From a virus (taxonomy: Duplodnaviria > Caudoviricetes), in IMG/VR virus record IMGVR_UViG_3300021479_000021, positions 1-60,448 of that record: a stretch of 60,448 nucleotides of DNA; one strand, written 5' to 3'. Below the pieces are notes generated by a model that worked only from the letters and a program-made list of their open reading frames with translations, did not search any database and was not told the DNA's origin. Of this stretch, positions 5,706 through 33,782 are shown one piece after another. The position numbers and the translations under genes are program-made. The stretch's first letter is position 1. The number at the start of each line of letters is the position of its first letter.

Positions 5706-6056
5706 TTATGCTATAATCATCTTAGGTGTTTCTAACCTCCAATTGAGATGCTTCATCATCAGTACAGTGTATGGCCCACCTCTACCTATTGGTTTTGATA
5801 TTCTCCATTTTAAATGTTTCAATATCAGCATAGTTATAAAACTTTCGATCTCATAAGGCTGTAATCTATATTTCTTTTCAAAAACTGACCATATTGAATT
5901 ATAATCAACGGCTAAATATCCATTTTCTTTGTTATTATACATCACTACAAAATCATCCAAATCCTTAACCACAATATTACCTGGATTTTTAGAATCCAAA
6001 GATATAGATCCTAATTTAGATAAGAAAAACTCCTCCAATGATATTATTTTTTTCAT
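5706..6056 (-). CDS. small array-associated protein, copy 1 (reads through repeat-spacer-repeat)
   Basis: paralog of 15937..16284 and 26333..26617 (EEFFL.KL, VVMYN.KN.YL.VDY..IWSVFEK.Y, LKHL.WR..P twice). Confidence 0.8.
   Translation of the reverse strand: MKKIISLEEFFLSKLGSISLDSKNPGNIVVKDLDDFVVMYNNKENGYLAVDYNSIWSVFEKKYRLQPYEIESFITMLILKHLKWRISKPIGRGGPYTVLMMKHLNWRLETPKMIIA
5725..5826 (-). CRISPR. mini CRISPR-like array: 2 repeats, one 30-nt spacer
   Basis: repeat 5725-5760 is 32/36 and repeat 5791-5826 is 24/36 identical to the 16152 repeat; spacer 5761-5790. Confidence 0.7.
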
Positions 6057-9898: not shown

Positions 9899-10828
9899 AT
9901 GAAGAATTACGTTAAAACATTTGAACAGTTTGTAGCCGGTAAACTTGAAAAAATATACGAAGCAGATCTACCTATTAAACCAACTGGTGACAGTATTAAA
10001 ACTTCCGATGATGCTCTTAAAGCTCTTATTAAAGATCCAGAAATTAAAACATTTAAATTCATAAAGGATACACCTTATGAAAAAGTTATCGAGACTAAAA
10101 AAGCAATTGCTCCAGCGGTAACTTTTCCAGAAAGAGGTGGCGACCTTAATTATGCAGGAACTAATATTAATATAGACGATACAAATTTTGTAAAAGATTC
10201 CCAAGAGATTGAAAAGAAATTTCAATGGATCAAAAACAGACTTGAAAAAATTACACCAAACGAATTTGAAAGTAAATTTAAGGCTGTTCAGGAAGAATAT
10301 ACTAAAAGATTCAAAGATTCTGAACTTACTATAACAGACGATAATATCGAGTACAGCCACAAATTTGTTCAAAATGATAATATCGCTCAAAGGGATTATA
10401 CAACAGCTGATGGTAAGACAATCAAAAAAGGTGATAAAATACCACAAAATGCTAAAGTTCTTCACTTCTTAGTTGGTAAAGTTTCAAAACCTACCGAAGA
10501 GCCTGCTCAACAAGAAACATTTATTCAATTAGCAAGTAAAACAATAACAATAAAAGTACCTACTCTTAAGGAACCTATGCAGGCAACACTCGCTAAAATA
10601 AAAGAACTTCAAGAGGCAGGATTCCCTGTTTCTGGATCGGGAAATTTGAGAATTATCAATAAAACTCCTATGTGGATTAAGAAACAAGATTATATGAATG
10701 CTATAAATCTCATTAACAATGATATTCATGATACATTTGTACTAAACGATGGTAAAAGAATTGATGGGTTTATGGCTCCAGCCGACCCAGAACTTTCTAA
10801 ACAATATTTTGCAAATAAAGGACAATAA
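9899..10828 (+). CDS. hypothetical protein, putative head-internal protein
   Basis: MKNYVKTFEQFV...IYEA N-terminus. Confidence 0.7.
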   Translation: MKNYVKTFEQFVAGKLEKIYEADLPIKPTGDSIKTSDDALKALIKDPEIKTFKFIKDTPYEKVIETKKAIAPAVTFPERGGDLNYAGTNINIDDTNFVKDSQEIEKKFQWIKNRLEKITPNEFESKFKAVQEEYTKRFKDSELTITDDNIEYSHKFVQNDNIAQRDYTTADGKTIKKGDKIPQNAKVLHFLVGKVSKPTEEPAQQETFIQLASKTITIKVPTLKEPMQATLAKIKELQEAGFPVSGSGNLRIINKTPMWIKKQDYMNAINLINNDIHDTFVLNDGKRIDGFMAPADPELSKQYFANKGQ

Positions 10829-12996: not shown

Positions 12997-14250
12997 TTAA
13001 AGTATTATCAAATCCACAGTGGATTTGAAAGAATTTAAGCTTGAAGAACTACGAGATGAGTCGTAGAGAACTCTATAACTGTATAAGAGTTTCTTTTGTT
13101 TAAATGTATAATATAATTCTTTAAATGTGCTGAAAACCTCAGGTACCATTTCCTTCCAACGGGTAGGTACAAGATTCACACATTCTCTGTTTATACTATC
13201 ATATTCATTCAAACCTTTACTTAGAAGAAAACTTCTGTAAGTAATTTCTTTTGATGCAGCTACTGAATCGTAATCATTAATATTTTCTAACTGCCCAATA
13301 AAGGAGCTATATTCGGGCCTTACTTCTTTAAATTTAATATCATTCAAAGTAAGTCTTTTCTTTAAATTATTTACAAAATTATTACGGTTCCATGAGTTGA
13401 GTAATTTATTCAGTTTCTTACCTTTCTTATGATTCTTAGATTTCATATTTAAGTTTTCTAATCCAACACAAGATACCCTGTAGTGCTTACATAAGCTTAT
13501 TACATGTTTAGATATAGTAACGGTTTCATACAACTTTTTATTCGTTGAAGCTTCATTCAACTTTCTTAAATCAATGATCTCTTTATAAACTTCTTTCTTG
13601 TTATTATAATTAATATCCATAATAGAAAGACCTATGTAATTAGGATTTAAATCTAAACCTAAATATCTATTTCTCTTTGGTTCATATACTGATTTAGTGA
13701 GTAAAGAAGGATCATAACTGATCCATACATTACTATCTGAAATCATAAAGTTGAAATAAGCCTTCTTTTCTTTACAAAGTAATTGAATTTTATAAAGATT
13801 TGCTCTTTCACCTTTTGATAATTTTAATGGTATCAAATATTTAACACCACATTTAGGCTTGAATATCATCATATTATTTAAAATATCTAATTCAGCTTTC
13901 CTATTACCACAATGATCTAATCTACTCCCTCTAATTGAAATAGGAATATTTTTATTATAAGTATTTTTTCGCCCATATTTTTTATTAAAGAACTCTTTCT
14001 TACCACCAAAGTATATCTTTTCTTCTCTATTTAATTCAGATGCTATTTTAACAGCTTCTTTAATGAAGGAAGCATCAAGTAATTCAATATTTTTCATATT
14101 ATCTTTTACTAGCCATTCTAATTTCGAAACATTAGTTACTTTATCCTTCATGATTCTATTATAAGCAAACCTTACCACGGAACTATACTGCTCTATAAAC
14201 CTAATATCTTTAAATACACTTTGTGATTTCTTTATCGTTACTATTTGCAC
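12997..14250 (-). CDS. tnpB: TnpB-like RNA-guided RuvC nuclease (IS200/IS605/IS607 accessory protein), no tnpA nearby
   Basis: YSSVVRFAYNR; RuvC-I LGLDLNP, RuvC-II GLENLN, PEYSSFIG...DSVAASKEI; no zinc finger. Confidence 0.8.
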   Translation of the reverse strand: MQIVTIKKSQSVFKDIRFIEQYSSVVRFAYNRIMKDKVTNVSKLEWLVKDNMKNIELLDASFIKEAVKIASELNREEKIYFGGKKEFFNKKYGRKNTYNKNIPISIRGSRLDHCGNRKAELDILNNMMIFKPKCGVKYLIPLKLSKGERANLYKIQLLCKEKKAYFNFMISDSNVWISYDPSLLTKSVYEPKRNRYLGLDLNPNYIGLSIMDINYNNKKEVYKEIIDLRKLNEASTNKKLYETVTISKHVISLCKHYRVSCVGLENLNMKSKNHKKGKKLNKLLNSWNRNNFVNNLKKRLTLNDIKFKEVRPEYSSFIGQLENINDYDSVAASKEITYRSFLLSKGLNEYDSINRECVNLVPTRWKEMVPEVFSTFKELYYTFKQKKLLYSYRVLYDSSRSSSSLNSFKSTVDLIIL

Positions 14251-14598: not shown

Positions 14599-14880
14599 AT
14601 GCCTTACCTTACAGCCATTATAATTATATGTTTCATTATCTTTTTACTTCAAAAACGCAAAAAAGGAGATAAATTAAGTGATAAAATAAAATTGTTCATG
14701 GAAAATAATCCAGATGATAATGTAACAATCCTTGCAGCTAAAATAGCAAAGAGTGAAGATTTTAACTTTATCCCTTTTAATGTGGCTGAAGAATATTGTT
14801 ATCTTATAAATGACGATAAACCTGTTGATCATTTGGATGAAGAGTATGATATCAGTATTAACCTAAACAGAAATGATTAA
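14599..14880 (+). CDS. membrane-anchored hypothetical protein
   Basis: N-terminal TM helix. Confidence 0.6.
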   Translation: MPYLTAIIIICFIIFLLQKRKKGDKLSDKIKLFMENNPDDNVTILAAKIAKSEDFNFIPFNVAEEYCYLINDDKPVDHLDEEYDISINLNRND

Positions 14881-15658
14881 ACATATAAAAATAATCAATA
14901 ATAGAAAATCTCTACTCTGTACATTATGGGGTCCTAAAGAAATAAAACTTTCAGAAAATGTTAATATAATTTTCTCACCAAATGGTACAGGCAAATCTGT
15001 AATGTTAAAAGGTTTAGCTTATTTTACAAGTTGTCAAAAAGGTGGATGGTCCACAGGATTAGATCCATTAGAAGCTAAGCTAGAGGTATTTTCTCCTATG
15101 GAAATAGATTATGTTAAACTAAAAAACAAGAAATCTAAAATTGGAGCTATGAATATTGATTGGGATGGAACACCAACCTACTATTCTAAAGCCATGTTAG
15201 ATGACTCATCTCAGAATATGCAAAATGCTTTATTTGGAATGAATCAAGAAATGAGCCTTGAAGATGCTATAGTGATGCATAAACAAAACTTATCCCAAGG
15301 CCAAACTACAATAACACATTTAAATAACATATTCCAAAGTACCCTTCCTGATATAACATTAGAAAAACATACAGAATCTAATAATATCTGGCAGAAGGCC
15401 GGAAGAATTTTAAGTGATTATGTAAAAACATTACCAAGAGATGGTAAACCAACCATACTCTTAGATGAACCTGACAGAAGTTTTGACTTTATAAATCAAA
15501 GATTCTTCTGGGAAAATGTAAACAAGCTGGCCGAGAAGTTTCAACTGATCATAACTACACATAGTATGTTTGTGTTAACAGATATTGCTAAGGATTTCAA
15601 TATAATAGAAATCACTCCAGGGTATTATAAAAAAGCAAAAGAAATAATAAAAGTATAA
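14873..15658 (+). CDS. ABC/AAA-type ATPase
   Basis: Walker A SPNGTGKS, signature LSQGQ, Walker B ILLDEPD, H-loop TTH. Confidence 0.85.
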   Translation: MIKHIKIINNRKSLLCTLWGPKEIKLSENVNIIFSPNGTGKSVMLKGLAYFTSCQKGGWSTGLDPLEAKLEVFSPMEIDYVKLKNKKSKIGAMNIDWDGTPTYYSKAMLDDSSQNMQNALFGMNQEMSLEDAIVMHKQNLSQGQTTITHLNNIFQSTLPDITLEKHTESNNIWQKAGRILSDYVKTLPRDGKPTILLDEPDRSFDFINQRFFWENVNKLAEKFQLIITTHSMFVLTDIAKDFNIIEITPGYYKKAKEIIKV

Positions 15659-15742: not shown

Positions 15743-15940
15743 ATGACAGATATATTTAAAAAAGATACCTTTTTGAAATTCAATTCAGAAGATAATAGAA
15801 TCGAACAAATCATTGATGTTGATAATGAAACACTCTTTACAAAAAAAAGTAATGATAAAGTCGTCAAATACAAAGAAAAAGATATTCGAGTAAAGATCTA
15901 CAATGGCCTTTGTACATTACATAAAAATTATCCAGTATGA
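15743..15940 (+). CDS. hypothetical protein
   Basis: ORF overlapping (ATGA) the next gene. Confidence 0.55.
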   Translation: MTDIFKKDTFLKFNSEDNRIEQIIDVDNETLFTKKSNDKVVKYKEKDIRVKIYNGLCTLHKNYPV

Positions 15941-16284
15941 CAGCGGAGGATTTTTTGATATTGAAGTTAGGGAGTGTTTCTTTAGACAAAGAATATCCAG
16001 GTAATATCATTATTAAAGATTCGGAAGGATATACTGTGATGTACAATAGAAAAAATCGCTATTTAGAGGTTGATTATATAAATATATGGTCAGTTTTTGA
16101 GAAGCAATATAACATGAATTATACTGATATACAATTATTTATAACTAACATGATGTTGAAGCACCTCAATTGGAGGCCAGAAACACCTTGTTACCAGTGG
16201 GTATGGGAAAACTTTCCGATGTTGAAGCACCTCAATTGGAGGCCAGAAACACCTTTATCAATTGTAGATACACCAGGACCATAG
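15937..16284 (+). CDS. small array-associated protein, copy 2 (C-terminus encoded by array)
   Basis: paralog of copies 1 and 3; MLKHLNWRPETP encoded by repeats 1 and 2. Confidence 0.8.
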   Translation: MTAEDFLILKLGSVSLDKEYPGNIIIKDSEGYTVMYNRKNRYLEVDYINIWSVFEKQYNMNYTDIQLFITNMMLKHLNWRPETPCYQWVWENFPMLKHLNWRPETPLSIVDTPGP

Positions 16285-16450
16285 ATGTTGAAGCACCTCA
16301 ATTGGAGGCCAGAAACACCTTTATTGGCAAGTTTAATACCTTCTTCAATGATGTTGAAGCACCTCAATTGGAGGCCAGAAACACCACCATGTTCTCAGGC
16401 TTTAAAAGAAATGAGATGTTGAAACACCTCAAATGGAAAACACAAACAAG
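16152..16450 (+). CRISPR. CRISPR-like array, 36-nt repeat GATGTTGAAGCACCTCAATTGGAGGCCAGAAACACC (type VI-B-like), 4 spacers
   Basis: identical repeats at 16152, 16218, 16284, 16350 and a degenerate one at 16415; unique spacers of 30, 30, 30 and 29 nt; CCTC/GAGG and TGTT/AACA stems. Confidence 0.92.
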
Positions 16451-16474: not shown

Positions 16475-16975
16475 TTAAATGTAATCCACCTCAGCTTCTT
16501 TCCCAAGAAGTTTAAATGCATCTGACTTAATACTTGGCCAATAAAATACAAGTTTATCGTTAACATTACTCATCTCATAACCCGGTAGAAACTTAGGAAA
16601 ATATCTCATATAAGTTTTTGTTCTTTTAGAAACTTCTCCAGTATCACTAGTATCTTTTCTTACACCATTGATAAAAATTATAGAGGTATAATACTCTTTG
16701 TTTAGTTTAATACATTTAAGAATTGCTTTACCTATTGTATTCAAAACTTTAGACATATTCCCTTTATTAGATACTTGAGAAGATGAACCGTTAATAAAGA
16801 AATAAAGCTCCAAATAATAAATATTACTACCTTCTACAACAATATTTTTAGGTACCAATTTAACCGTATACACATCACCAAATTCTGTTTTGAAAATCAT
16901 AGAAAAATTACTCTTCCTTAACGGATAAGTTTCGGATGATTCATTAAACTGCTCAAATGTTTTAAAATAATTCAT
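16475..16975 (-). CDS. hypothetical protein, putative head-internal protein
   Basis: probable start MNYFKTFEQFNES. Confidence 0.7.
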   Translation of the reverse strand: MNYFKTFEQFNESSETYPLRKSNFSMIFKTEFGDVYTVKLVPKNIVVEGSNIYYLELYFFINGSSSQVSNKGNMSKVLNTIGKAILKCIKLNKEYYTSIIFINGVRKDTSDTGEVSKRTKTYMRYFPKFLPGYEMSNVNDKLVFYWPSIKSDAFKLLGKEAEVDYI

Positions 16976-17020
16976 TGATCTATATATTAGATACATTTAT
17001 AAACATATGCTATATACAGT

Positions 17021-17446
17021 ATGGTTTTAGACAAGATAGCCTTGGGTGAGAAATATATCAACTACTTAAAAAAAGTAGAAGAATTAATAATTCGAGACCT
17101 GGAGAATACATCAAAGGATTATATTCAAGATCATGAATTTTTCTTTAACAGAAAGGATGAACGAGATAATATACTGAACATGGGTCTGGAACAGCATTCT
17201 GTTTTATCAATGGGTGAGACTTATAGTATACTTACAAACATAGAAAATATGTTAGTGATTGTTATTATTTACAAATCAATTCTAAATAACTCAGCATATA
17301 CAGTCTGTTTAGGTAAAACCAGCAGATCTGGTAAAATAGAATATATCAGTGATACAAAAAAGCACGCCGGAATTATTTTCAAATTCTTTATAAAACTAAA
17401 TATGATTATGAAGAAGAGATATAAAATAGATATTAAGACTCTTTAA
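17021..17446 (+). CDS. hypothetical protein
   Basis: weak N-terminal similarity to the 1225/2009 family. Confidence 0.6.
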   Translation: MVLDKIALGEKYINYLKKVEELIIRDLENTSKDYIQDHEFFFNRKDERDNILNMGLEQHSVLSMGETYSILTNIENMLVIVIIYKSILNNSAYTVCLGKTSRSGKIEYISDTKKHAGIIFKFFIKLNMIMKKRYKIDIKTL

Positions 17447-18201
17447 TCTTTAAAAGCGTCTCTACTACCTATTGCTGCATGATACACACTTGCGAAGAAT
17501 AATTCTTTCTTAAGTTCTATTAACTTCTCTGTATGGACACCAAGCTCATTTAATTTATCAGCAAGTTCTGGCTTAAGGTAATAGGCATCTTGATATGAAA
17601 TAGTAGCTTCATGTTTAGAATTAAGTTTTACTTCAGCTAATATTAATCTTGACTTATTTGGAATACTGTATAATTTTTTACCAGCTGCTTCTTGTTTAGT
17701 ATATACTTCCCTTTGAACATTTATAGCATATTTACCACCAGAACCAGGAATAGGCCTAGCTCTCACTACAGCACTCTTATTATCAATCGAATCGTTTTCA
17801 ACATCTTCCAACAGCTTAGAAAACTTCGTAATATTTGTATTAATTGATTCCACAATCTCTGTTAAAGCTTCTGGAGAATACTCTACAATACCATCACCAA
17901 GAACTTTGGCTACATGTATAGGATCTTCACCAGCTTCATCATCGTGATCAACATCTCTATGTAAAACTTCCTCTATAGTCTCCAAATCATGATCCAGATA
18001 GGTATAACAACCATCTTTAGTTAATGGAACAACTTCACCCTCTGGAATACCATTTGTTGTATCACAAAAAACTATACCTTGTGATATAAGCTCTTCTAAT
18101 TCAGCATCAGAAACCAATATACTTGTACCAGATGGATTACCTATTATTTTCTTGTCATACCTGGTAATAAACGATTCAAAGGATTTTACGTACTGCTTCA
18201 T
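17443..18201 (-). CDS. hypothetical protein, putative head-internal protein
   Basis: MKQYVKSFESFI N-terminus. Confidence 0.7.
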   Translation of the reverse strand: MKQYVKSFESFITRYDKKIIGNPSGTSILVSDAELEELISQGIVFCDTTNGIPEGEVVPLTKDGCYTYLDHDLETIEEVLHRDVDHDDEAGEDPIHVAKVLGDGIVEYSPEALTEIVESINTNITKFSKLLEDVENDSIDNKSAVVRARPIPGSGGKYAINVQREVYTKQEAAGKKLYSIPNKSRLILAEVKLNSKHEATISYQDAYYLKPELADKLNELGVHTEKLIELKKELFFASVYHAAIGSRDAFKD

Positions 18202-18310: not shown

Positions 18311-18384
18311 GGGCTTTTAGCTCAGGTGGTTAGAGCAACTGACTCATAATCAGTAGGTCCTTGGTTCGAGTCCAAGAAGGCCCA
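18311..18384 (+). tRNA. tRNA with CAT anticodon (probably Ile2, otherwise Met); CCA not encoded
   Basis: GGGCTTT/AAGGCCC acceptor stem, ACTGA-CTCATAA-TCAGT anticodon arm, CTTGG-TTCGAGT-CCAAG T arm. Confidence 0.93.
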
Positions 18385-18394
18385 CATAATTATT

Positions 18395-19762
18395 TTATCC
18401 AAAACCTAATTCAACATATTCGTGAAAATCTTCTTCAGTTAGAGATTCATCATCATTATCTAAACATGTTATGGAGAATTGTGGTTCTTCAGATAATTTT
18501 GAAATGAATGTATCAACAAAATGTGCAGCAATTTCTAAATCCTGTGCTAAGAAGTCCAAATCATATGTTATATCTAAAATATATTCTTGATCTACTGTGC
18601 CACTTTCATATCTAGTTTCAAAATCAGAAACATTCAATTCCAAATTTACAACTAAATCAGACTTTTCAACTTTCTTTAAAACACTAGGAAACTCATAAAA
18701 AGCTTCAATCAATCTTGGATATAATTCTCTTTTTTTATAATCATCTTCTAAAGCCTCTTCAACATCTTCTTTACTAAATCCAGACTCCTCAAATTCTTCC
18801 ATTGTCAAAAATGTATATTTGACACCAGATAAACGATAAGTTTTCATATTACTTAAATCAGCAGTTGATATAAAATATTTTCTCCATTTTTCTACATAAC
18901 TAACATCTACTTCTGAATCATTTCTAGCATGACAGGCTGAGATGTAACCGTTAGGAATCATCGTCACACCAATCATAGAAAGAATATCTTCTCTTTGTTT
19001 ACTTGTATCCCAAATAAAGAACTGTTTATTTACTTGTTTAACGTATTGTGTAAACAGTTCATCATCTTGTGCTATACACCAAGAAGTATCTTTACCGAGT
19101 TCTTTAGAAGCCTCAAAATTACTAATTAAAGCAATAACAATTGTATCATCTGAATGAATTAATTCGGCTCCTGGAGTATCTTTTACTTTACTAATGATAG
19201 TTTCTACATTAAACTCACCATCAACTCCTTCAATGAATCCCTTGATATGATTATATAATTCACCCACAGTCTTGTTACGAGAAATTTTACTAAAAAGAAC
19301 ATCTTTCAAATAATTTTCTGACAAATCTTTATTATCGGTAACCATTTTATGTAATAATAGAAACAAATTATAAAACTTATCTTCCTGTCCAGTCATAAGA
19401 TTACGAACTTGTTTAGGTACCATATTGATTAATTTCTTAACAGCACTATCGGATTCAATTTTTTCAAAGAAATCAAGTAGTTGCTCATACGTATCAAATT
19501 TAGTAATATCTATTCCAGACGATTGAATATTAAGCCTGTATTTAACAAGTAGATTAAATACCTTATCAAACCACATTTGAATAGACTTATCCTTAGAAGC
19601 TATTTTTATAAACATTGGTAGATATTTTGAATACATTCCACTTAATTTAGCAGCAATAAAACTTAATGAATAAATGTCTTTCGGATCAATATTTAAACCT
19701 CTAGCTATATCTTCGGCCTGTTTCATAGATTCAAACAAGGCGTATGTTTTAAAATATTTCAT
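18395..19762 (-). CDS. large paralog-family protein A (SWCI domain)
   Basis: shares N-terminal ~300 aa with 44230..47874 and 49675..51543. Confidence 0.75.
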   Translation of the reverse strand: MKYFKTYALFESMKQAEDIARGLNIDPKDIYSLSFIAAKLSGMYSKYLPMFIKIASKDKSIQMWFDKVFNLLVKYRLNIQSSGIDITKFDTYEQLLDFFEKIESDSAVKKLINMVPKQVRNLMTGQEDKFYNLFLLLHKMVTDNKDLSENYLKDVLFSKISRNKTVGELYNHIKGFIEGVDGEFNVETIISKVKDTPGAELIHSDDTIVIALISNFEASKELGKDTSWCIAQDDELFTQYVKQVNKQFFIWDTSKQREDILSMIGVTMIPNGYISACHARNDSEVDVSYVEKWRKYFISTADLSNMKTYRLSGVKYTFLTMEEFEESGFSKEDVEEALEDDYKKRELYPRLIEAFYEFPSVLKKVEKSDLVVNLELNVSDFETRYESGTVDQEYILDITYDLDFLAQDLEIAAHFVDTFISKLSEEPQFSITCLDNDDESLTEEDFHEYVELGFG

Positions 19763-19802: not shown

Positions 19803-20246
19803 CTACAATAACATTCTATTAATCTCTATATCATTATATTCAGTATGTTGTTCGATCCATTTATCAATTGTAGATACACCAGGACCATACCGGCCAATTT
19901 GTAAAGGAATATAATCAATCCGGTAGTCTTCAAAAAACAAAGCTTCATTGTTTAATAATACAAATAAATCATTTTCACCTATATTACCAGTATATTCAAT
20001 TAAAATATCAATATCAGAATTAGATCTGTAGTTACCAATAACTCTACTACCAACAAGAGCTACCTCAAGCACTTTTATACCAGAAGATAACTCCATATCC
20101 AAGACATGTTCTAAATGTACAATTATCTCATCAAAAATTATATCACAATTTTCCAGTGTATCTAAATCCGGATCCGAAATAATTTTATTAGGTTGCGACT
20201 CCTTACGATCAAAATCTTCATCAAATGAATCATTAAAAATCTCCAT
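19803..20246 (-). CDS. minimal nucleotidyltransferase (Pol-beta superfamily)
   Basis: LVGSRVIG...SDIDILIEY...IDYIP. Confidence 0.85.
   Translation of the reverse strand: MEIFNDSFDEDFDRKESQPNKIISDPDLDTLENCDIIFDEIIVHLEHVLDMELSSGIKVLEVALVGSRVIGNYRSNSDIDILIEYTGNIGENDLFVLLNNEALFFEDYRIDYIPLQIGRYGPGVSTIDKWIEQHTEYNDIEINRMLL
19860..19889 (+). other. protospacer identical to array spacer 2 (16254-16283)
   Basis: TTTATCAATTGTAGATACACCAGGACCATA, 30/30. Confidence 0.95.
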
Positions 20247-23447: not shown

Positions 23448-24962
23448 CTATAGTATAACTAATTTCTTAACGGCTCTTCTACCGTTTTGTTTGATAACTT
23501 GAACAAAGTATATCCCGGTAGATAAATCAAAATGTTGATCCTCAGATGTATTCTGTGAAGAAATTGCTGTACCCTTTTCGTTAAAGACACTTATAGATTG
23601 TACATTCGTTGTTGATACATTGAATGAACCACTTGACGGATTTGGATATATTACAAAGTCTTCTTGCGTTGATAATCCATCATTGATCCCAGTAGTAACA
23701 GATTCAGCTGTTTGTGTAATTGTATACTGAGCCGTAACACTACCAGATGTAAGCGTAATTGTCGCCGTTCTATCATATGCTGTATTGTTTAGACTTCCAG
23801 GAACAATAGATAACAATTGATTACCATTAAGGGTAAAACTAGACAGTGATGAGAAATCTAACCAAGAAATATTTATACCAGTAATTGTCCAATTATCATT
23901 TGAAGTAACTTGAACACTTTGTGTGTTAGCCACAATTGATGTCTGATTATATGTAAATGCAACACTATTTGTTGAGACAACCAATGTAGCTACTATAGGC
24001 TGAGCCTTCTGTGTAATGTTAATAGTGATATTTGTTAATCCTGGCGAAGATAGAGTTATAGTTGTAGTTCTATCAGTATTTGTAGTGTTGTCATTTAGTG
24101 TACGAATCCAAAGGATAGTATCGTTAGAGAAAGCTGTACCGGCTAAGATAGTACCAGAACCGTTTTCTATATTTAACCAAGAAGCATCTGTTATAGCCAT
24201 GGACCAATTTGTATTAGAGCTTACCTGAATTTTATTAATATAGGTTGAGCCGTTTATTGTATCACGAGCATTTGAAGCAAAAGTAAGAGCTGTTACAGTT
24301 GTAGTTAAATAAGGTGTTACAGCAACATCTTGCTGGGTAACAGTAAGTGTTATCGTGGTTACACCTGCACTTATTGATATGGTACCAGTTCTTGGTGCTC
24401 CTGTTGTATTATTATCTACATAGAAAGTTATAGAAGTTGTACCAGATAGACCAGAGAGAGTATATGTACCACCAGCTATACCGAATCTCAACCACCCACC
24501 TGTAGAGGTAGCTGTAGCATTCCAATCAGCATCTGAAGTAACAGCTTCTGTATATGTATTCTGTATTGATGATATACTTTTAGTATATTCAACCAAACTC
24601 ATAGTTGCCGGAGAAGCAGTTTGAGTAACAGTTATATCCGTTGAGCTTGCCCCACCGTTAAAGGAAACTGTTATAACACCACTTCTGGAACTTGTTAGAG
24701 AGGGATTAACGGTAACAGCTGACACCGTTACACTTCCTGAACCTGTCCCAGATGGTACACCTGATAATGTTACCCAAGACGGCTTTACGGTAATCGTCCA
24801 TGGCATACCAACAGGTACTGTTATACTGATAATCTGACCCGCCACTCCAGGCGATGCATATGATAAACTACTAGGCAAAACGCCTATCGATACTGCGAAA
24901 CTCGATAATGCTGTCATAAGCATCAGAGACATAACTAATAATATTCTTTTCATGTTTTTCAT
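23448..24962 (-). CDS. secreted protein with four BACON-like domains and a T9SS (Por) C-terminal sorting domain
   Basis: signal peptide; repeated W...WL...N....R.G.IT...TVTQ; IYPNPSSG...GIYFV...KKLVIL. Confidence 0.85.
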   Translation of the reverse strand: MKNMKRILLVMSLMLMTALSSFAVSIGVLPSSLSYASPGVAGQIISITVPVGMPWTITVKPSWVTLSGVPSGTGSGSVTVSAVTVNPSLTSSRSGVITVSFNGGASSTDITVTQTASPATMSLVEYTKSISSIQNTYTEAVTSDADWNATATSTGGWLRFGIAGGTYTLSGLSGTTSITFYVDNNTTGAPRTGTISISAGVTTITLTVTQQDVAVTPYLTTTVTALTFASNARDTINGSTYINKIQVSSNTNWSMAITDASWLNIENGSGTILAGTAFSNDTILWIRTLNDNTTNTDRTTTITLSSPGLTNITINITQKAQPIVATLVVSTNSVAFTYNQTSIVANTQSVQVTSNDNWTITGINISWLDFSSLSSFTLNGNQLLSIVPGSLNNTAYDRTATITLTSGSVTAQYTITQTAESVTTGINDGLSTQEDFVIYPNPSSGSFNVSTTNVQSISVFNEKGTAISSQNTSEDQHFDLSTGIYFVQVIKQNGRRAVKKLVIL

Positions 24963-25954: not shown

Positions 25955-26242
25955 TTACATAATTGATGATAAAGAAGAACTACCAGGAGTGATTGCTGTA
26001 ATACATTCAGAAGTCAAACACTCAGGACAAACATTAGCATTAATATCCATGGGTCCCTGATAGTTACAATTTGTACAAACTATATCAACAGTATCATCTT
26101 CATTAGAATCACACCATAAACACATACCTGGATACGTTGAACTTTCTTCATTAGCATTCATGATCTTGTCTCCACAATGTTCACAATCTTTTGGAAATTC
26201 CATATCTTGTATAAAGCTTTCAAAATTCTTAACATAAGTCAT
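25955..26242 (-). CDS. Zn-ribbon protein with capsid-targeting-like N-terminus
   Basis: MTYVKNFESFI; four CxxC pairs. Confidence 0.65.
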   Translation of the reverse strand: MTYVKNFESFIQDMEFPKDCEHCGDKIMNANEESSTYPGMCLWCDSNEDDTVDIVCTNCNYQGPMDINANVCPECLTSECITAITPGSSSLSSIM

Positions 26243-26300
26243 AAATAACTAATTTATTTTTAGTATATATGAAATTAGAGCTTATTAAATTATAAGCTTG

Positions 26301-26384
26301 TTGAGGTGCTTCAAGAACTACCTTTTTTGCCGTTATACACTCCACGTAGGTTTTTCAGGCCTACAATTGAGGTGCTTCAAGAAC
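26301..26384 (-). CRISPR. mini CRISPR-like array: full repeat, 30-nt spacer, half repeat
   Basis: repeat 26349-26384 is 31/36 identical to the 16152 repeat; spacer 26319-26348; 18-nt partial repeat 26301-26318. Confidence 0.7.
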
Positions 26385-26617
26385 ATATCTATTATAAACG
26401 TTTGAATGTCTTTATAATTCATACGATATTCCTTTTCAAAAATTGACCATACATGTTCATAATCAACATATAAGTAGCTATTTTTTCTATTGTACATCAC
26501 AACATATCCTTCACTATCTTTAATAATAATAATATTATCACAGTATCTTTCTTTTTTTATAGAAATAGTAAACTCACTTATTTTATTAATAAAAAATTCC
26601 TCAGCAGATTCTTTCAT
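26333..26617 (-). CDS. small array-associated protein, copy 3
   Basis: IIIKDSEGYVVMYNRKNSYLYVDY..VWSIFEK...FLKHLNCRPEKP. Confidence 0.8.
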   Translation of the reverse strand: MKESAEEFFINKISEFTISIKKERYCDNIIIIKDSEGYVVMYNRKNSYLYVDYEHVWSIFEKEYRMNYKDIQTFIIDMFLKHLNCRPEKPTWSV

Positions 26618-26621
26618 GATA

Positions 26622-26894
26622 TTATCTTATAAGTCCTGAACTCATAGCATATTCTGGATCAATATCCTTATTATCAAACCAAACATTTAATTGCTGGATA
26701 GCATGGTCTTCTTCAAGGAAATAATATTTATTACCTTCTTTATCTCTAACGAATCTTTTTTCGTGATAATCATACTCATCAAAACTTTGCATTGTAACAA
26801 CAGTAATTAGTTTATCTTCTCTTCGGTAGAGTCTGAAATAAACTTCATTTGAATTTTCAATATTACCGAGTAATGTTGTTGGTAGTGTCTTCAT
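26622..26894 (-). CDS. hypothetical protein
   Basis: ORF track. Confidence 0.6.
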   Translation of the reverse strand: MKTLPTTLLGNIENSNEVYFRLYRREDKLITVVTMQSFDEYDYHEKRFVRDKEGNKYYFLEEDHAIQQLNVWFDNKDIDPEYAMSSGLIR

Positions 26895-26959
26895 ATTAAA
26901 TATTTTTTCTAAAATGCTAATATAAAAAGAAAGTCTGTAATTTACTACAGACTTTTTAA

Positions 26960-27652
26960 TTATTTGGACTCAGTATTTTCATCTGGTTTATTCTTACCAG
27001 ATTTCTTTGCTTCTTTTTCATCAGCAATAGATTTAGCCTTTTCTTCTAAAAATTTATTAAGATCCTTCATAGAACCGCTAAAACCACCAGTTTTACTACC
27101 ATCTTTATCAAGTTTTTTATTCTCACGACCAAATTTAGGCATATCCTCAAAACCTAAATCAAATCTTAGTTTTCTATAAAAACTTTCCATAAGAGACAAG
27201 CTGTTACTAGCAGACTTATTTATTTTTTCTAACTCACCCATACCCTTGTATATGATTTCAAAATGTCTTGGTGATTGATCACCTTGCTCCATAAGATTAA
27301 GTTGCTTTAAAAGAACCTGCTGAGCTACAGAAGATAAAAAATCTAGAGAACCCTGATTTTTCGCATCTCTTTCTATACGACTTTTTATATACGATTGTTG
27401 AAGAACATTCTCATCACCATCAAGCCATAGAGAAGCAAGATTGTCTATTATTTCTTTACTATTTACTAAACAAATTGCTAATTCATCCTTATATTTAGAA
27501 ATCTCAGGTGTATCCAAATTATTAAGATCAGGAAAATCTGTTGCTGTAACCAACATACCTTTAGGATTATCACCAAGATCCTGTTCTTTAGCAGTTTCCT
27601 GTATATCATTCATTCTATCTTTAAAATTCTTTTTGTCCTCTTTATCAGGCAT
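26960..27652 (-). CDS. hypothetical helical protein, possible terminase small subunit
   Basis: adjacent to terminase; SPRHFEII...GSMKDLNKFL resembles T4 gp16-type motifs. Confidence 0.45.
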   Translation of the reverse strand: MPDKEDKKNFKDRMNDIQETAKEQDLGDNPKGMLVTATDFPDLNNLDTPEISKYKDELAICLVNSKEIIDNLASLWLDGDENVLQQSYIKSRIERDAKNQGSLDFLSSVAQQVLLKQLNLMEQGDQSPRHFEIIYKGMGELEKINKSASNSLSLMESFYRKLRFDLGFEDMPKFGRENKKLDKDGSKTGGFSGSMKDLNKFLEEKAKSIADEKEAKKSGKNKPDENTESK

Positions 27653-27699
27653 ATTTTTATTTTTATTTTTATCTATATTTCTTTAGTGTGTCTGTCAAT

Positions 27700-29928
27700 T
27701 TAATAACCGTTAAACTGATTACTGGAAGGGTTATTAAATGGATTATTTAATGCTTTAGCATAAGAAGCTAAATCATTAAAAGGTCCTAGTTTAATATTAT
27801 ATTTAGATGATTTGTTTACTCTGTTTACAGAATTATTACCTCTTAAAGCAGAGAATAATGATGAGTAGTCAGCCGTACTTATATTAGGATTATTACTTAA
27901 TCTCTCTTCTATTTCATTCAAAATATATGGTGTTTCTGAAAGTAAACTATCACATAAATTATGGAAGGTACTATTCTCAAAAGCTGTTGATAAATTAACA
28001 ATGGACATAACTATATCATCATGTCCTGATTCAGCAGCAAACTGAACACTACCAGCTTTACTTTCCTTTTTAATAAATGTAGACACTTCATGTAGAGTGT
28101 TTTCTTCATGTACAACAATATCAGAAAGTTTCATCCTTTTCTGGTAACTCTTAACAAGGGATTCTTTATTAAGATTGACTTTTAAACCAATACTTTTTTC
28201 TACAGCATCAGCTCTATGTTTGTATCTAAAAAAGACATGACTACTGTATTGATTTCTTCCAAGGAATAAATCTTTAATCTTAGTAGTCATTTCCGAACCA
28301 CCACTATTAAGCTCTAAAACAGCACCTACTTTATCAGGATTAAAAATTTCAAAAGCTATAAGATAAAATAATTCAGTTATTTCAGGCACAGAAATCATAT
28401 TACTTCTATAAAGTCCTATTTGTTCCATATAAAAGAAATCATAAAAATTATCTGGTCTTGTAGGCCATAAATCTTTAGGTTTTATCATTAATCTAAATAT
28501 ATTAAGTACAGAAAAATCTTGTCCTATACCAGTACCAAGATCTATTGAAAAAACAATATGATAATTTTTTATATTAGCTAAAGAAAATAAATTAGGTCTA
28601 TCCTTTATAAATGTTAATCCTGAATAATCTATCATTGTTCTTTGATCAAGTGTAGGTATTTTTAAATGTTCAAAATCAATTTTTCCATTAATGATTTTAT
28701 CCATGAACTGAGCATCAAATATCATTTTATTTCCAGCAAGGAATTGTAACCCGTACTCTTGATTAAATGAGTCTTCTGAACCAATATCAGCTATAGCATC
28801 TTCTTTCCAAGAAGATATATCAGCAATTTCTAACAATCTATATTTTTCTTCACCTCTTTCAAATGTACATTCTCTGAAATAATCTGAAACAGTATTATCA
28901 CCATCTTTTGATACATACGTTTCATTAAACCAGAAAGGTAAATCTTCATACCTATTCAGTATGTGAACAACACTATTACCTTTTAAATAATCATATTTTA
29001 AATTGGCTTTGAAACCTAAATTATTAACCCAATTTAAAATCTCTTCTGCTTTAATATTATATTTAGCACATATATTTTCATCTAATTTTAAATAAGTAAC
29101 AAATCTTCCAGGAACCTGATACCAATAAACTCTTTTAGCATTAAAGTTATTTTTTTTCTTGTCACCAACAGGGCGTTCAGCGTCTTGTAACAATTGGTGG
29201 AATAGATTTAGACCTCGGGGAGTACTTGTAATTATTATTTTAGAATTCTCAAATGAACTTACTGTTGGGTATGTTGTACGATAAAAATCCTCTTGAATAC
29301 TATTATCTACCAAACCAAACTCGTCCATATACAGAATATTTACACTACTTGAGGCCGAACTTGTCGCTGACGCTGAAAGTGTTTTTAGTCTGTTATTATT
29401 GTCGCTAAAAGTTATACTACCCTTTGCCCAGTTATTAACACCAGGTTTTAAAAACATAGGCAATCCAGTATAAATCTCTTTAAATTTAAAAACTATTTCA
29501 GCGATAGTTGTATGTAAGTTAGCGACAATTAAAATATTTCTATTGTTCTCAAAAATACAAGCATGTAATAAAAATATACAAGCTGTTACAGTTTTTGAAG
29601 ATTGCCTGGAAGCCATTATGATGTTGAACCTATTATCAACAAACATATCCAAAATTTCTGCTTGAAAATCCCGTAAAATAATATTTCCGATTGAGCTGTC
29701 TTCTTTTCTTAATAAACAATATGTCTCAGCAAAATATTTAACATCAAATTTACATTTGGTATATTCCATTAATTCCTCTTCTGTGAAATCAAACACCAAA
29801 CCCTCCTTTTTAACAAAAGGCATATTTTTATACCAATATTTTTCATGTCTTGGTATAACAAAACCTCTATCTAACCTATCAGCTATTTCTTTTATTTTTT
29901 CTGTACTAAAAGTTATTTGTTTAGACAT
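27700..29928 (-). CDS. terL: terminase large subunit (T4 gp17-like)
   Basis: LRDFQ, SRQSSKT, YMDEFG, ITSTPRG, FNQEY, IDLGTGIGQDFS, GHDDIVMS. Confidence 0.93.
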   Translation of the reverse strand: MSKQITFSTEKIKEIADRLDRGFVIPRHEKYWYKNMPFVKKEGLVFDFTEEELMEYTKCKFDVKYFAETYCLLRKEDSSIGNIILRDFQAEILDMFVDNRFNIIMASRQSSKTVTACIFLLHACIFENNRNILIVANLHTTIAEIVFKFKEIYTGLPMFLKPGVNNWAKGSITFSDNNNRLKTLSASATSSASSSVNILYMDEFGLVDNSIQEDFYRTTYPTVSSFENSKIIITSTPRGLNLFHQLLQDAERPVGDKKKNNFNAKRVYWYQVPGRFVTYLKLDENICAKYNIKAEEILNWVNNLGFKANLKYDYLKGNSVVHILNRYEDLPFWFNETYVSKDGDNTVSDYFRECTFERGEEKYRLLEIADISSWKEDAIADIGSEDSFNQEYGLQFLAGNKMIFDAQFMDKIINGKIDFEHLKIPTLDQRTMIDYSGLTFIKDRPNLFSLANIKNYHIVFSIDLGTGIGQDFSVLNIFRLMIKPKDLWPTRPDNFYDFFYMEQIGLYRSNMISVPEITELFYLIAFEIFNPDKVGAVLELNSGGSEMTTKIKDLFLGRNQYSSHVFFRYKHRADAVEKSIGLKVNLNKESLVKSYQKRMKLSDIVVHEENTLHEVSTFIKKESKAGSVQFAAESGHDDIVMSIVNLSTAFENSTFHNLCDSLLSETPYILNEIEERLSNNPNISTADYSSLFSALRGNNSVNRVNKSSKYNIKLGPFNDLASYAKALNNPFNNPSSNQFNGY

Positions 29929-31414
29929 TAATAGAAATTATATTTTTAAAATATTCGAATATTTTATCCTCTATATTTTCATTATATTTTATCCTCAACA
30001 AACCAATACCCTTATTTTTACAATATTCATTCTTTATAAAATCACGATGTTGATTATTTTTAAAAGCCTTTTGACCACCAAATATCTCAACTGATTTATA
30101 GTGTTGTTGACCATCATATTCTATAGCTACATTTAAAGAAGGTATATAAAAATCAAATATTAAAGGTCTTTTATTTCTACAATCAGAGAATTTATGTTGT
30201 TTAATAAACTCTACACCTAATTTCTTCAAAACTTTTTCAGATATTTTTTCACCCTTTGAATTTTTGCAATTAGGACAACCACTTCCTCTTAGGTGTCCAA
30301 TAGGCGTTTGTTTAAATTCCCCATGTTTGGGACAAACAATTATAACATTTTTTTTATTACCAACATATTCTACTTTATCATAAGAAAATAAATCACCATG
30401 AACTTTTCTAGCACCAGCAATAAATTCTTCTATTGGTTTAGGTTTTGGTTTCGGTGTACAGTTACTACAACCATATTTTCTACTTGTGTGTTTATTTGGA
30501 CTCTGTAAAAATTTCCCATGTATAGGACATATAATAATCACTTTTTTTATAGAACTAACATATTCTACTTTACTATAATCATATTTATTCTTATGTATAA
30601 TATTTGCTTCTTCTATAAATAATTCTGTTGGTTTCTTAAAATTAGTATTACAATATGTACAACCACAACCTCTCAAATGACTATTTGGAATTTGTTGAAA
30701 AATATTATTACAAGTATTACATTTTATGGATACTTTCTTTCTACTTTTTTTATAATCAACTAAACTATAATCATATTTTAATCCATGTTTATCAATAGCC
30801 TTTTTAATAAAAGTTTCGGTGTTTGATGTTTTTGTTTCATTTCTTCTCTCACAACCACATTTATTACAACCATATCCTTTTATAAGAGCACTTGGTTTAA
30901 TTAAAAAATTACCGTGCTTTTCACATTTCAATACAATCTTAGTTTTAAGATCAACAAAATTGATATTAGAGTAATCATATTTACTATTTACTATTTTTAC
31001 CTTTTCAAGAAAAGTATCTTTTGTATACTTTACATTTTTTGCACATTTTGGACAATTATATTTTAAATGTCCCTCAATTGTTTGTTTAAAATACCCGTGA
31101 ATTTCACAACCAATTTCAACTTTAGTTTTACTGTTTATAATGTAAACCCTACTATAATCATATAAATCACCATGAACTTTATAAGCCCTTCTCAAAAATT
31201 CTTCTTTATCAATTTTTTTGTTACCAGAACAAGCAGGACATCCTTGACCTCTCAAAAAATTGGATGGTTTAGACATAAAAGAACCATGCTCTTTACATAT
31301 AATTTCAACCTTAGTTCTATTATTTACATATATAACTTTACTATAGTCAAATTTATCACCAAATTTTTCTTTAGCCTTTTTTATAAAGACTTCTTTTATG
31401 TTACTAATTTCCAT
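29921..31414 (-). CDS. homing endonuclease-like protein: tandem Zn-binding (DUF723-like) repeats + Vsr/PD-(D/E)xK domain
   Basis: six YDYSKV...C..HG.F...GC..C repeats; FDFYIP...IEYDGQQH...D..KN.YC. Confidence 0.85.
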   Translation of the reverse strand: MEISNIKEVFIKKAKEKFGDKFDYSKVIYVNNRTKVEIICKEHGSFMSKPSNFLRGQGCPACSGNKKIDKEEFLRRAYKVHGDLYDYSRVYIINSKTKVEIGCEIHGYFKQTIEGHLKYNCPKCAKNVKYTKDTFLEKVKIVNSKYDYSNINFVDLKTKIVLKCEKHGNFLIKPSALIKGYGCNKCGCERRNETKTSNTETFIKKAIDKHGLKYDYSLVDYKKSRKKVSIKCNTCNNIFQQIPNSHLRGCGCTYCNTNFKKPTELFIEEANIIHKNKYDYSKVEYVSSIKKVIIICPIHGKFLQSPNKHTSRKYGCSNCTPKPKPKPIEEFIAGARKVHGDLFSYDKVEYVGNKKNVIIVCPKHGEFKQTPIGHLRGSGCPNCKNSKGEKISEKVLKKLGVEFIKQHKFSDCRNKRPLIFDFYIPSLNVAIEYDGQQHYKSVEIFGGQKAFKNNQHRDFIKNEYCKNKGIGLLRIKYNENIEDKIFEYFKNIISINV

Positions 31415-31473
31415 AATCTTTTATATATTATATATCAGAATCAACTTTTTCTCAAAGTCCGATATAACTTTAT

Positions 31474-32688
31474 ATGAGTATAAAAAAAGAACATAAATGG
31501 GTTGTAGGTGATAATCGATTTCATCATCCGGACTGGCAAATCGATAGATTGGACTGTTTGAGATTTTATTTAGATGAGAACAAAACCTTCCCCAACAGTT
31601 CCGAGTGGAACGGTGAAAAGGCTATAAGTTTAGATCTTATGTTAGAATTTCTAAACAAAGAAGATTTTGCTATTGTACAACAAAGAAATTTTTCAGCTGG
31701 TATAAGACAAATAATTCTTTGTAAGAAAGGATTAGTGATCAACATATTTTCTTATGCTAAGGATATTGATTATTTCTCAGATGTTCCCGAGTTTATCTCT
31801 ATTAAGAAAAACAGAAAAATAATCGTATCAACACGATTTGAAGTTTTACATGAGGAATTAAACAAACCAAAATTCATTGATAAACTGGTTAAATATTCAA
31901 CATTAAAAGAAAATTCTTCCAGACCAACAGTCAATATAATATCAAAAGATGCTCAAGGTTTCAAACTCGTAGAAGTAATTATTGATACAACCTACAATGG
32001 TGACTTTGATATTCATTATGGAAAAGGTTTCACTAAATTCCATAATACTTTAATAACAAAAATGAATAATACCCACAAAGGTATAGTCATATTTCATGGT
32101 GATCCCGGTACAGGTAAAACTTGTTATATTAGAAATCTTCTTTGCGAATTATCCAAATCCGGTAAGAAGAGAATAATTATATTACCAAACAGTACTATAA
32201 ACTATTTACTAGATCCAGACTTTACTGATTTTATTTTAGAACTTGTAGAAGAAATGAATTACGATGATGAATGGGGTGATGATATAATCAGTTATGGTGA
32301 GCAAAGTATTTTACTTGTTATTGAAGATGCTGAACCAATCTTAATGAAAAGAGATGATATGGTAGGTGGTAATCAAGGAACATCAAATATACTTAATATG
32401 ACCGATGGTATTATGAATGATATATTTGGTTTTCAAGTAATTGCTACCTTTAATACAGATCTTAAAAATATCGATCCTGCTGTACTAAGAAGTAAAAGAC
32501 TCATAGCTAGAAAGACATTCAATAAATTGTCTGTTGAGGAATCTCAAGCTCTTATAGATCATTTGAAAATAGAACATACAGCAACACAAACCTTAAGTGT
32601 AGCTGACATTTATGCTCTTAAAGAAAGTTCAGACAACACAATACTTATTGAGACTATTGAACCAAAACATAATAAGATAGGTCTTTAA
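31474..32688 (+). CDS. AAA+ ATPase
   Basis: HGDPGTGKT, VIEDAE, ILNMTDG, IDPAVLR. Confidence 0.88.
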   Translation: MSIKKEHKWVVGDNRFHHPDWQIDRLDCLRFYLDENKTFPNSSEWNGEKAISLDLMLEFLNKEDFAIVQQRNFSAGIRQIILCKKGLVINIFSYAKDIDYFSDVPEFISIKKNRKIIVSTRFEVLHEELNKPKFIDKLVKYSTLKENSSRPTVNIISKDAQGFKLVEVIIDTTYNGDFDIHYGKGFTKFHNTLITKMNNTHKGIVIFHGDPGTGKTCYIRNLLCELSKSGKKRIIILPNSTINYLLDPDFTDFILELVEEMNYDDEWGDDIISYGEQSILLVIEDAEPILMKRDDMVGGNQGTSNILNMTDGIMNDIFGFQVIATFNTDLKNIDPAVLRSKRLIARKTFNKLSVEESQALIDHLKIEHTATQTLSVADIYALKESSDNTILIETIEPKHNKIGL

Positions 32689-32699
32689 TCTAATATACA

Positions 32700-32734
32700 A
32701 TGCTCACGACATTAATGTCGTGAGCATCTTTTTT
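32700..32734 (+). terminator. intrinsic terminator
   Basis: ATGCTCACGACAT-TA-ATGTCGTGAGCAT followed by a T-run. Confidence 0.8.
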
Positions 32735-32804
32735 ATTTTTAAAAGTATCATTTCTAAAATAACAGTAAACTTTTGATATATAATTCAAAGCTAAAATATT
32801 TATT

Positions 32805-33782
32805 ATGTTACCAAAATATAAACCATTTATTCCACATAAAATGAAAGTAGAAGAAAATATTGAAACTTTAGTCCCACCTTTGACTCCAGGTAGTCCAATT
32901 TTAGGAGAATTACCACAAGGCGAAGTAATACAAACACCAGAAGAAGTTCCCGTTCAGGAACCTTCTTATAAAGTTCTGTTTATTCATGGTGCTTCAGAAA
33001 ATGAAGAGGAAACTTTGGAAGTAGCAGAAGCTCTAAAAGAAAAATTCTCTAACTGTGAAATAAAAGATATTCATCTTTACGAACTTAACATCCAACCTGA
33101 AGAAGCTATTAAAGATGGTATGAGTCAAATATATCAGGCTCTTGAACAAAGTGATGTGATTGTATTAACTATGGATGCTGACAAATCAGATAGTCTTCAA
33201 GCCGTTTTAAAACGTATTATTAATAAGTATGTTGAGAACAAAGGTTTACAATATAAAAGTTTTTGCTCTATTGTAATGGGTGGTGATATAGACACTAAAG
33301 ATGAATTACTTAGTCTGGCCTATTGTCTTGGTATGATTGTTATGCCACAATCGATAATAATAGATTCAAATAGTTTGCCTGATGATATGACTTTACCATC
33401 CACTATATTATCTAATTTAAAAAACAACATAGTAACTACTGATAACGATACAGAAGAAGATATTATTGATTCAAATACTGGAGAACAAGTAGTTGATACA
33501 ACTACTGACGAGTCTGATCCTAATGAAACTTTGGAAGAAGGTGAGGATGAAAACACTGATGATTCTAATAAAGATGATGATACAGATGAATCAGATACTG
33601 ACGATGATAGTAATGATACTGAAGAAGAAAATGAAGAGACTGTCTTCAGTTATGAGGAATGGAAAAAAAGACAACCTTCTGAATCTATTATAGAAGCTAA
33701 AAAAATATTAGATATAAATGATTTTATAGCTCTTTATGAGAAAAAATATACACAACCATTTAATGATGCTGAAATACTTTAA
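32805..33782 (+). CDS. flavodoxin-like (FMN reductase) fold protein with acidic tail
   Basis: KVLFIHGA...IHLYELNIQP...DGMSQIYQALEQSDVIVL; D/E-rich C-terminus. Confidence 0.55.
   Translation: MLPKYKPFIPHKMKVEENIETLVPPLTPGSPILGELPQGEVIQTPEEVPVQEPSYKVLFIHGASENEEETLEVAEALKEKFSNCEIKDIHLYELNIQPEEAIKDGMSQIYQALEQSDVIVLTMDADKSDSLQAVLKRIINKYVENKGLQYKSFCSIVMGGDIDTKDELLSLAYCLGMIVMPQSIIIDSNSLPDDMTLPSTILSNLKNNIVTTDNDTEEDIIDSNTGEQVVDTTTDESDPNETLEEGEDENTDDSNKDDDTDESDTDDDSNDTEEENEETVFSYEEWKKRQPSESIIEAKKILDINDFIALYEKKYTQPFNDAEIL

Follow-up and report, generated by a model that had tools for sequence, protein, structure and literature searches.

The locus analyzed here raises the question of whether a short run of identical repeats carried by a phage is a CRISPR array, to which CRISPR type its repeat belongs, and what such an array is doing at the end of a small gene. 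The window, which is the whole stretch of DNA that was analyzed, is a 60,448-bp IMG/VR virus record with a CheckV completeness of 31% and a G+C content of ~29%, and encodes a T4-type large terminase.

A mini-array that begins inside a coding sequence

The 36-nt repeat and ~30-nt spacers described in the initial annotation of this DNA were confirmed. The unit GATGTTGAAGCACCTCAATTGGAGGCCAGAAACACC at 16152-16187 is followed by exact copies that start at 16218, 16284, and 16350 and by a decayed copy, and the start-to-start spacing of these units (66, 66, 66, and 65) leaves spacers of 30, 30, 30, and 29 nt. Tandem Repeats Finder delimited the array as 16150-16385 with a period of 66. The elements of the locus are as follows.

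15937-16188 (+): gene X, a small gene (84 codons) that is conserved in phages
16152-16187 (+): repeat 1, in frame within gene X
16188-16217 (+): spacer 1, 30 nt, no match
16218-16253 (+): repeat 2, identical to repeat 1
16254-16283 (+): spacer 2, 30 nt, perfect copy of window 19860-19889
16284-16319 (+): repeat 3, identical to repeat 1
16320-16349 (+): spacer 3, 30 nt, no match
16350-16385 (+): repeat 4, identical to repeat 1
16386-16414 (+): spacer 4, 29 nt, no match
16415-16450 (+): decayed terminal repeat, 8 of 36 positions changed

When translated alone, the decayed unit at 16415-16450 specifies MLKHLKWKTQTRIL followed by a stop codon and resembles the tail of a gene X copy that lacks an array. 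A decayed terminal unit also was found in four of the related loci described below (G002, L018, L020, and G003). Paired repeat ends and an inner CCTC/GAGG stem had been proposed for the repeat, and RNAfold drew both on the + strand (-5.9 kcal/mol), but the fold was no better than those of shuffled sequences (z -0.31; 75 of 200 shuffles at least as stable). The - strand repeat folded at -10.1 kcal/mol (z -1.72), with 8 of 200 shuffles at least as stable. Covariation within the hairpin was weak: 73.2% of cells were paired compared to 67.4% after shuffling, and changes on both sides were confined to 2 pairs. The repeat and its regular spacing are far beyond chance, whereas the hairpin alone is not.

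Repeat 1 is coding rather than intergenic, a point that was missed in the initial annotation. The repeat forms the last 12 codons of gene X, in frame, and encodes MLKHLNWRPETP; the open reading frame as called (15937-16284) continues through spacer 1 and repeat 2 until a TAG codon in spacer 2. This tail is kept in all eight homologues examined (P0001-P0008), some of which read through further units. The unit of a paralogue in the virus record G001 differs from that of the window by two synonymous codon changes only (CAC to CAT and AAT to AAC), and dN/dS values for the gene X body were 0.12-0.73 (45 pairs, where computable). Gene X is a real gene under purifying selection. The AlphaFold model of the protein, built from a 97-sequence alignment, comprises a helix, four strands, and two helices with a pLDDT of 91.9, and the last helix (residues 62-77) is predicted to continue into the residues encoded by the repeat.

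Profile searches among 1.84 billion proteins recovered 437 relatives of gene X (representatives) at E ≤ 1e-3. The tail of the same protein recurred 21-23 residues further on in 28 of the 150 relatives listed compared to none of 150 shuffled sequences, and the first of these counts is a lower bound because a stop codon in the first spacer conceals the array from the ORF caller. No family in Pfam or PHROGs covers gene X, and none is common to the 97 members scanned. Foldseek comparison of the gene X model with the PDB gave no match at E ≤ 0.001, and the best solved-structure rows from VIA-align were homeodomain-like helical proteins at noise level (Z up to 3.8). Matches to the model in BFVD were solely uncharacterized phage proteins (TM up to 0.73, E 0.05 or worse), and those in the protein atlas were solely viral hypothetical clusters with scores of 0.81 or less. 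Searches of GenBank phages by tblastn with three family members as queries returned no matches. One DNA sequencing run and no RNA run were listed as containing the sequence, and the contigs of the DNA run fragment across gene X and the array, give no joints, and are uninformative about expression or array variants.

A rival reading is that the locus is not CRISPR but a tandem repeat at the protein level, in which conserved blocks of 12 residues alternate with variable linkers of 10 residues. The 66-nt period does equal 22 codons, and an open reading frame spans two units in the window and four in P0001. However, the frame is ended by the TAG codon in spacer 2, spacers of 29 and 31 nt break it in the window and in other arrays, the repeats are identical at the DNA level between unrelated spacers, three spacers exactly copy distant genome sites, and the terminal unit has decayed. 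The stops, frame shifts, and spacer origins largely refute this reading, which is considered highly improbable.

No recognizable cas genes accompany the arrays in the records that were searched. Cas1 and Cas2 were not detected in G000-G002, nor Cas1 in G003-G005, which include the complete genome G004 (CheckV 100%), and neither Cas13a (NF038188) nor Cas13d (NF038189) was detected in G000-G002. Of the 86 ORFs of ≥110 aa in G004, 83 were scanned with PADLOC, which reported no Cas family among them; the three left out were ORFs over 1,900 aa. The long ORFs scanned in the window specify the terminase, an ankyrin-repeat protein, a BACON protein, and two proteins that belong to no family. The ankyrin-repeat protein (44230-47844, -) is 1204 aa in length with the repeats at its C-terminus. 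Ankyrin repeats are unusual in phage.

Recurrence of the cassette and origin of its spacers

Gene X and its array form a cassette that is present three times in the window. The main array occupies 16152-16450 (+) and has four spacers; the other two cassettes have one spacer each and comprise the following elements.

5706-6056 (-): second cassette, with gene X paralogue P0009 (116 aa as called)
5791-5826 (-): tail unit of the second cassette
5761-5790 (-): 30-nt spacer of the second cassette
5725-5760 (-): second unit of the second cassette
26283-26617 (-): third cassette, with gene X paralogue P0007 (ORF 26333-26617)
26349-26384 (-): tail unit of the third cassette
26319-26348 (-): 30-nt spacer of the third cassette
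26283-26318 (-): half-decayed unit of the third cassette

The gene-tail-spacer-tail layout also occurs in five virus records (G001, G002, G003, G004, and G005), the last three of which have IMG/VR record numbers other than that of the window, and in five metagenome loci (L015, L016, L018, L019, and L020) with 2-4 units each. The 166.9-kb record G002 possesses two arrays with different repeats, and the repeat of the second, array B (GTTGTGGAAGCATCTCAAATGGAAGGTAAAAACACC), again forms the tail (LWKHLKWKVKTP) of the divergent gene X that accompanies it. G004 is 118 kb and has a repeat unit of 39 nt. G005 is 213 kb, 81% complete, and harbors five arrays and ~10 gene X copies in a region of small ORFs. 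Repeats diverge in step with their gene X, even inside one genome: the repeats designated G005_a and G005_d have 20 of 36 positions in common (hand count, alignment A7). The segment at 26,000-40,000 in G005 (L044 6000-20000) includes ~30 small ORFs of 90-190 aa, nearly all on the same strand, and looks like a small-gene accessory island; of the five arrays in this phage four lie here, as do most of its ~10 copies of gene X. A 760-aa protein, P0010, from a 148.5-kb metagenome contig consists of five gene X domains, each with tail, spacer, and tail in one frame, and is a set of tandem cassettes that was read through by the gene caller.

The genes that flank the arrays differ from locus to locus, and gene X is the sole constant companion of the arrays. 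Three genes upstream of the main array, window 14873-15658 (+) encodes an ATPase of the ABC/SMC type (261 aa; AAA_21, SMC_N) that is not conserved beside other arrays. ATPases of this type are common in defense and anti-defense islands. A phage tRNA-Met gene with anticodon CAT is located at 18311-18385 (+). The ORFs 9899-10828 (+), 17443-18201 (-), and 18395-19762 (-), which are otherwise unrelated, have the common start motif MK.Y/F.K.F/Y E.F; the strict pattern occurs in 3 of the 65 window ORFs of ≥100 aa, and looser forms are evident at 16475-16996 (-) and 49675-51543 (-). The motif may be a shared N-terminal signal or the mark of a paralogue family.

A 417-aa ORF at 12997-14250 (-) has weak TnpB-type RuvC matches to TIGR01766 (E 2.8e-7) and guided_TnpB (E 9.8e-6), both under the curated cut-offs. 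By eye it has no cysteine cluster between the RuvC motifs, and it has no Pfam match, no solved-structure match, and no relative in IMG/VR. It may represent a nuclease guided by RNA that has diverged strongly, or a mobile element in the phage. As this TnpB-related ORF is 1.9 kb left of the array, the latter could supply guides to the RuvC protein and the two could form a miniature type V system. Such a pairing is very improbable: the protein is absent from G001, G002 keeps only a 23-residue N-terminal remnant ~44 kb from the nearer array, no relative was found in IMG/VR, the other arrays are in different neighborhoods, and four unrelated ORFs intervene between the TnpB-like ORF and the array. 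Its absence next to the arrays in both G001 and G002 led to its rejection as the array effector.

Spacers across the arrays are 29-31 nt in length. The metagenome locus L018 has a repeat identical to that of the window and a gene X that is 84.5% identical, with no spacer in common. Three of the 41 spacers reproduce, without a mismatch, a second site in the phage record that carries them, as listed here.

19860-19889 in the window: protospacer of window spacer 2 (30 of 30 positions), in the nucleotidyltransferase-domain gene 19803-20246 (-)
160706-160735 in G002: protospacer of array B spacer 1, in the ligand-gated channel gene that adjoins array A
101375-101403 in G004: protospacer of spacer 1, in a small gene whose product is hydrophobic by eye and has no Pfam family

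The remaining 38 of the 41 spacers had no match in the phage DNA compared, none of the 41 matched a different phage when set against the phage DNA of the window, its relatives, and the loci compared, and window spacers 1, 3, and 4 had no exact match in IMG/VR. None of the 18 spacers in G005 is self-matching in a record that is 81% complete, which indicates that self-derived spacers are a minority. A spacer 2 guide transcribed with gene X would be antisense to the mRNA of 19803-20246; overall, guides in the gene X direction would be antisense to the mRNA that they match in the window and in G004 and sense in G002. The flanks of the three protospacers have no clear motif in common that might serve as a PAM, and the arrangement known from Flavobacterium columnare, TTTA and then 5 nt on the upstream side, is present only at the G002 protospacer. 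The channel gene in G002 (L008 4913-5998) encodes a glutamate-receptor-like ligand-gated ion channel (SBP_bac_3 and Lig_chan) and is directly upstream of one gene X while being the target of a spacer in the other array of that genome.

Spacers in this family are copied from phage DNA and turn over between relatives. Identical repeats, near-constant unique spacers, a decayed end, protospacers, and spacer turnover are the general marks of CRISPR arrays, and all were observed. The locus is a true mini-array of the CRISPR type that lacks recognizable cas genes and is carried by a large phage.

Assignment of the repeat to a CRISPR type

The initial annotation proposed that the repeat is of type VI-B, in keeping with a host in the Bacteroidota. 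The best clue to the host is a 504-aa protein encoded at 23448-24962 (-) that combines BACON domains with a type-IX-secretion C-terminal sorting domain and on which a Bacteroidota host, as suggested, is probable. The VI-B proposal itself fared less evenly. Published VI-B repeats are marked by a length of 36 nt, complementary GUUG/CAAC ends, 30-nt protospacers, and a U-rich open loop (bioRxiv 10.1101/092577; PMC11662929). The geometry of 36-nt repeats and 30-nt spacers is that of the window, but the GUUG and CAAC ends and the U-rich loop are absent: the window repeat has GAUG...CACC ends (GGUG...CAUC on the reverse strand), and the + strand loop is AAUUG with A-rich flanks, only the reverse strand being U-rich. 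The consensus of 17 units (alignment A7), GTTGnnGAAACATCTCAAnTGGAGGnnAnAAACACC, starts with GTTG, as expected, and ends with CACC.

The likeness to known Cas13b repeats noted in the initial annotation proved equivocal. Compared ungapped and in register with the printed PspCas13b repeat (bioRxiv 10.1101/2023.03.10.532141), the window repeat has the same letter at 20 of 36 positions on a hand count, and the first 10 nt of the G002 array B repeat are those of the PspCas13b repeat (PMC11512209; bioRxiv 10.1101/2023.03.10.532141). However, the reverse strand is about as similar: by hand count over the 30 defined positions of the consensus, the forward strand matches the PspCas13b repeat at 16 and the reverse strand at 15. 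Thus, the likeness to PspCas13b stems largely from shared near-palindromic ends. The Rfam CRISPR repeat families gave no match to the repeat itself, and the only CRISPR row returned was CRISPR-DR35 (E 8.6), which spans spacer 4 and its two flanking repeats. Furthermore, type II-C repeats of F. columnare also are 36 bp in length and have a GTTGT end in common with VI-B repeats (PMC8092290), and therefore the geometry does not identify VI-B. By its length, spacing, and consensus start, the repeat falls in a class with 36-nt repeats, 30-nt spacers, and GTTG starts that covers VI-B and some II-C repeats.

It is doubtful that a host Cas13b processes and loads the pre-crRNA of this array as a type VI-B system, for use against competitors or as a decoy. 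The published VI-B geometry, the GTTG opening of the family consensus, the partial matches to PspCas13b, and the likely Bacteroidota host speak for this reading, as does, indirectly, the antisense orientation that guides would have in two of three self-matches; the persistence of phages whose spacers match their own genome would be in line with an effector that targets RNA. Against it are the CACC end in both the window and the 17-unit consensus, the A-rich + strand loop where a U-rich one is expected, the about equal likeness of the reverse strand, the silence of Rfam on the repeat, the features shared with II-C repeats of F. columnare, and the G002 self-match, which is sense to its mRNA.

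A host array with the repeat, a search for which had been advised along with the VI-B proposal, did not come to light. A 32-mer of the repeat had no matches in the genomes of 185,579 species (one genome per species). A relaxed 21-mer gave two single matches in the same genomes, which were read as chance occurrences inside unrelated genes, and in JGI metagenomes matched phage contigs only, plus one single match in the 3.5-kb contig L014. A 23-mer of the G005 repeat had no matches in the species genomes. Thus, no host array with these repeats was found in the 185,579 species genomes or the JGI metagenomes; the host may be unsampled. Within the window, a scan of both strands that allowed ≤12 mismatches recovered gene X units only and no anti-repeat or tracrRNA-like copy.

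A putative landing pad for spacers and its relation to known systems

The explanation that is favored on balance is that a Cas1-Cas2-type integrase, provided in trans, uses the end of gene X as a leader and the repeat-like tail as the first repeat. The integrase, which we infer to be most likely host-supplied, would act during infection and take the junction of the gene X end and tail for a leader-repeat junction. Fragments of 29-31 nt would be inserted there with duplication of the repeat at each insertion, such that the array would grow between gene X and the old tail, the latter being pushed outward to decay into the terminal repeat. Every insertion would alter the gene X residues after ...TP. 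The array is probably transcribed as a 3′ extension of the gene X mRNA, to which the distal location of the decayed repeat and a terminator-like hairpin on the opposite strand (16431-16412) point as weak indications. The hairpin, one site found compared to 0.7 expected, would block antisense read-in from the convergent gene and so fits weakly with + strand expression; promoter sites of the sigma-70 type were not above the level in shuffled sequences in a scan whose scope does not extend to Bacteroidota promoters. The repeat-bearing RNA might then load a host class 2 effector with guides chosen by the phage or serve as a repeat decoy. The benefit to the phage could be guides for a hijacked effector, a decoy akin to RNA anti-CRISPRs (PMC10651486), or a sink for spacer acquisition.

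Several observations weigh against this explanation. No matching host array was found, though known viral mini-arrays copy the host repeat, with repeats identical to those of the host (PMC11656645). The wide divergence of repeats within one phage (20 of 36 positions shared by G005_a and G005_d) is hard to square with a single host effector. Targeting between phages is without support, as none of the 41 spacers matches another phage, and guides that perfectly match their own carrier would do harm were they put to use.

The absence of a host array from the searches and the wide divergence of repeats within one phage keep in play a model in which the cassette is an autonomous phage module. Protein X would act with the repeat of its own gene, for instance by binding the repeat DNA to recruit integration or by binding the repeat RNA, and each paralogue and its repeat would evolve together with no need for a matching host array. 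The model accommodates the constant presence of gene X alone beside arrays whose other neighbors vary, the divergence of repeats with the gene even within one genome, and the outcome of the host searches, and the confidently modeled fold of three helices around a four-stranded sheet has weak homeodomain-like matches (Z up to 3.8). Nevertheless, an 84-residue protein without a known catalytic fold cannot be an integrase or nuclease, the complete genome G004 showed no candidate partner in the Cas1 and PADLOC searches, co-variation of gene and repeat is only to be expected of a repeat that lies within the gene, and the fold matches are at noise level. The autonomous module is accordingly judged improbable, although less remote than the tandem-repeat and type V readings.

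Extension of the favored explanation to the entire family, such that at least 437 phage gene clusters end in coding sequence that doubles as a working CRISPR repeat and landing pad for spacers, is tentative and at present rather unlikely. If correct, phages would divert spacer acquisition by the host and flood its effector with harmless guides, thereby providing both an adaptation sink and an RNA decoy; alternatively, the cassettes would be guide cassettes run by a small protein together with its repeat. In either event CRISPR arrays would be born and kept on protein-coding DNA, with the C-terminus rewritten for each spacer. The locus also raises the questions of whether adaptation machinery can use coding sequence as leader and repeat, whether phages soak up spacer acquisition, and whether an RNA-targeting effector such as Cas13b is fed. 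Array finders that drop arrays overlapping ORFs would miss the gene-fused class.

Among known systems, type VI-B arrays resemble the cassette in the lack of cas1 and cas2 nearby, the Bacteroidota setting, the 36-nt repeats and 30-nt spacers, the GTTG start of the consensus, and the tolerance of self-matching spacers (bioRxiv 10.1101/092577; PMC11662929; PMC8092290). They differ in the CAAC end and U-rich loop, in place of which the present repeat has CACC and no U-rich loop on the gene X strand, and in possessing cas13b with or without csx27 or csx28, none of which is in view here. The type II-C arrays of F. columnare have 36-bp repeats with a GTTGT end that are like this repeat family, and the II-C Cas1-Cas2 serves a second, foreign array in trans (PMC8092290). 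In contrast to II-C systems, no tracrRNA-like repeat copy was seen in the window, and an effector that cuts DNA would make perfect self-matches lethal wherever a PAM was present.

The closest likeness is to viral orphan mini-arrays and solitary repeats, including Racr, which similarly are virus-borne without cas genes, comprise one to few spacers or a single repeat, often in several copies, and are presumed to depend on host Cas proteins (PMC10651486; PMC11656645). Solitary repeats that have been described are intergenic and located just after a promoter, whereas here the repeat is the coding, in-frame end of a conserved gene. Described viral mini-arrays have a host-matching repeat and spacers against related viruses, whereas in the present case the searches turned up no host counterpart of the repeat, and the only matches among the 41 spacers are three to the carrier itself and none to another phage; furthermore, the cassette defines a large gene family, unlike the mini-arrays described. 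Literature searches, which included the available portions of PMC10651486 and PMC11656645, found no account of a gene-fused array layout, which is not proof of absence. Such viral units have been described as non-coding copies of the host repeat that hijack host CRISPR systems or act as decoys for them, but the repeat examined here is translated. Moreover, the cassette recurs in unrelated metagenomes and repeatedly within single phage genomes, with some spacers self-derived. Overall, the array is best placed among the viral orphan mini-arrays and solitary repeats, from which it is set apart by being fused in frame to the genes of a large phage family that has not been described.
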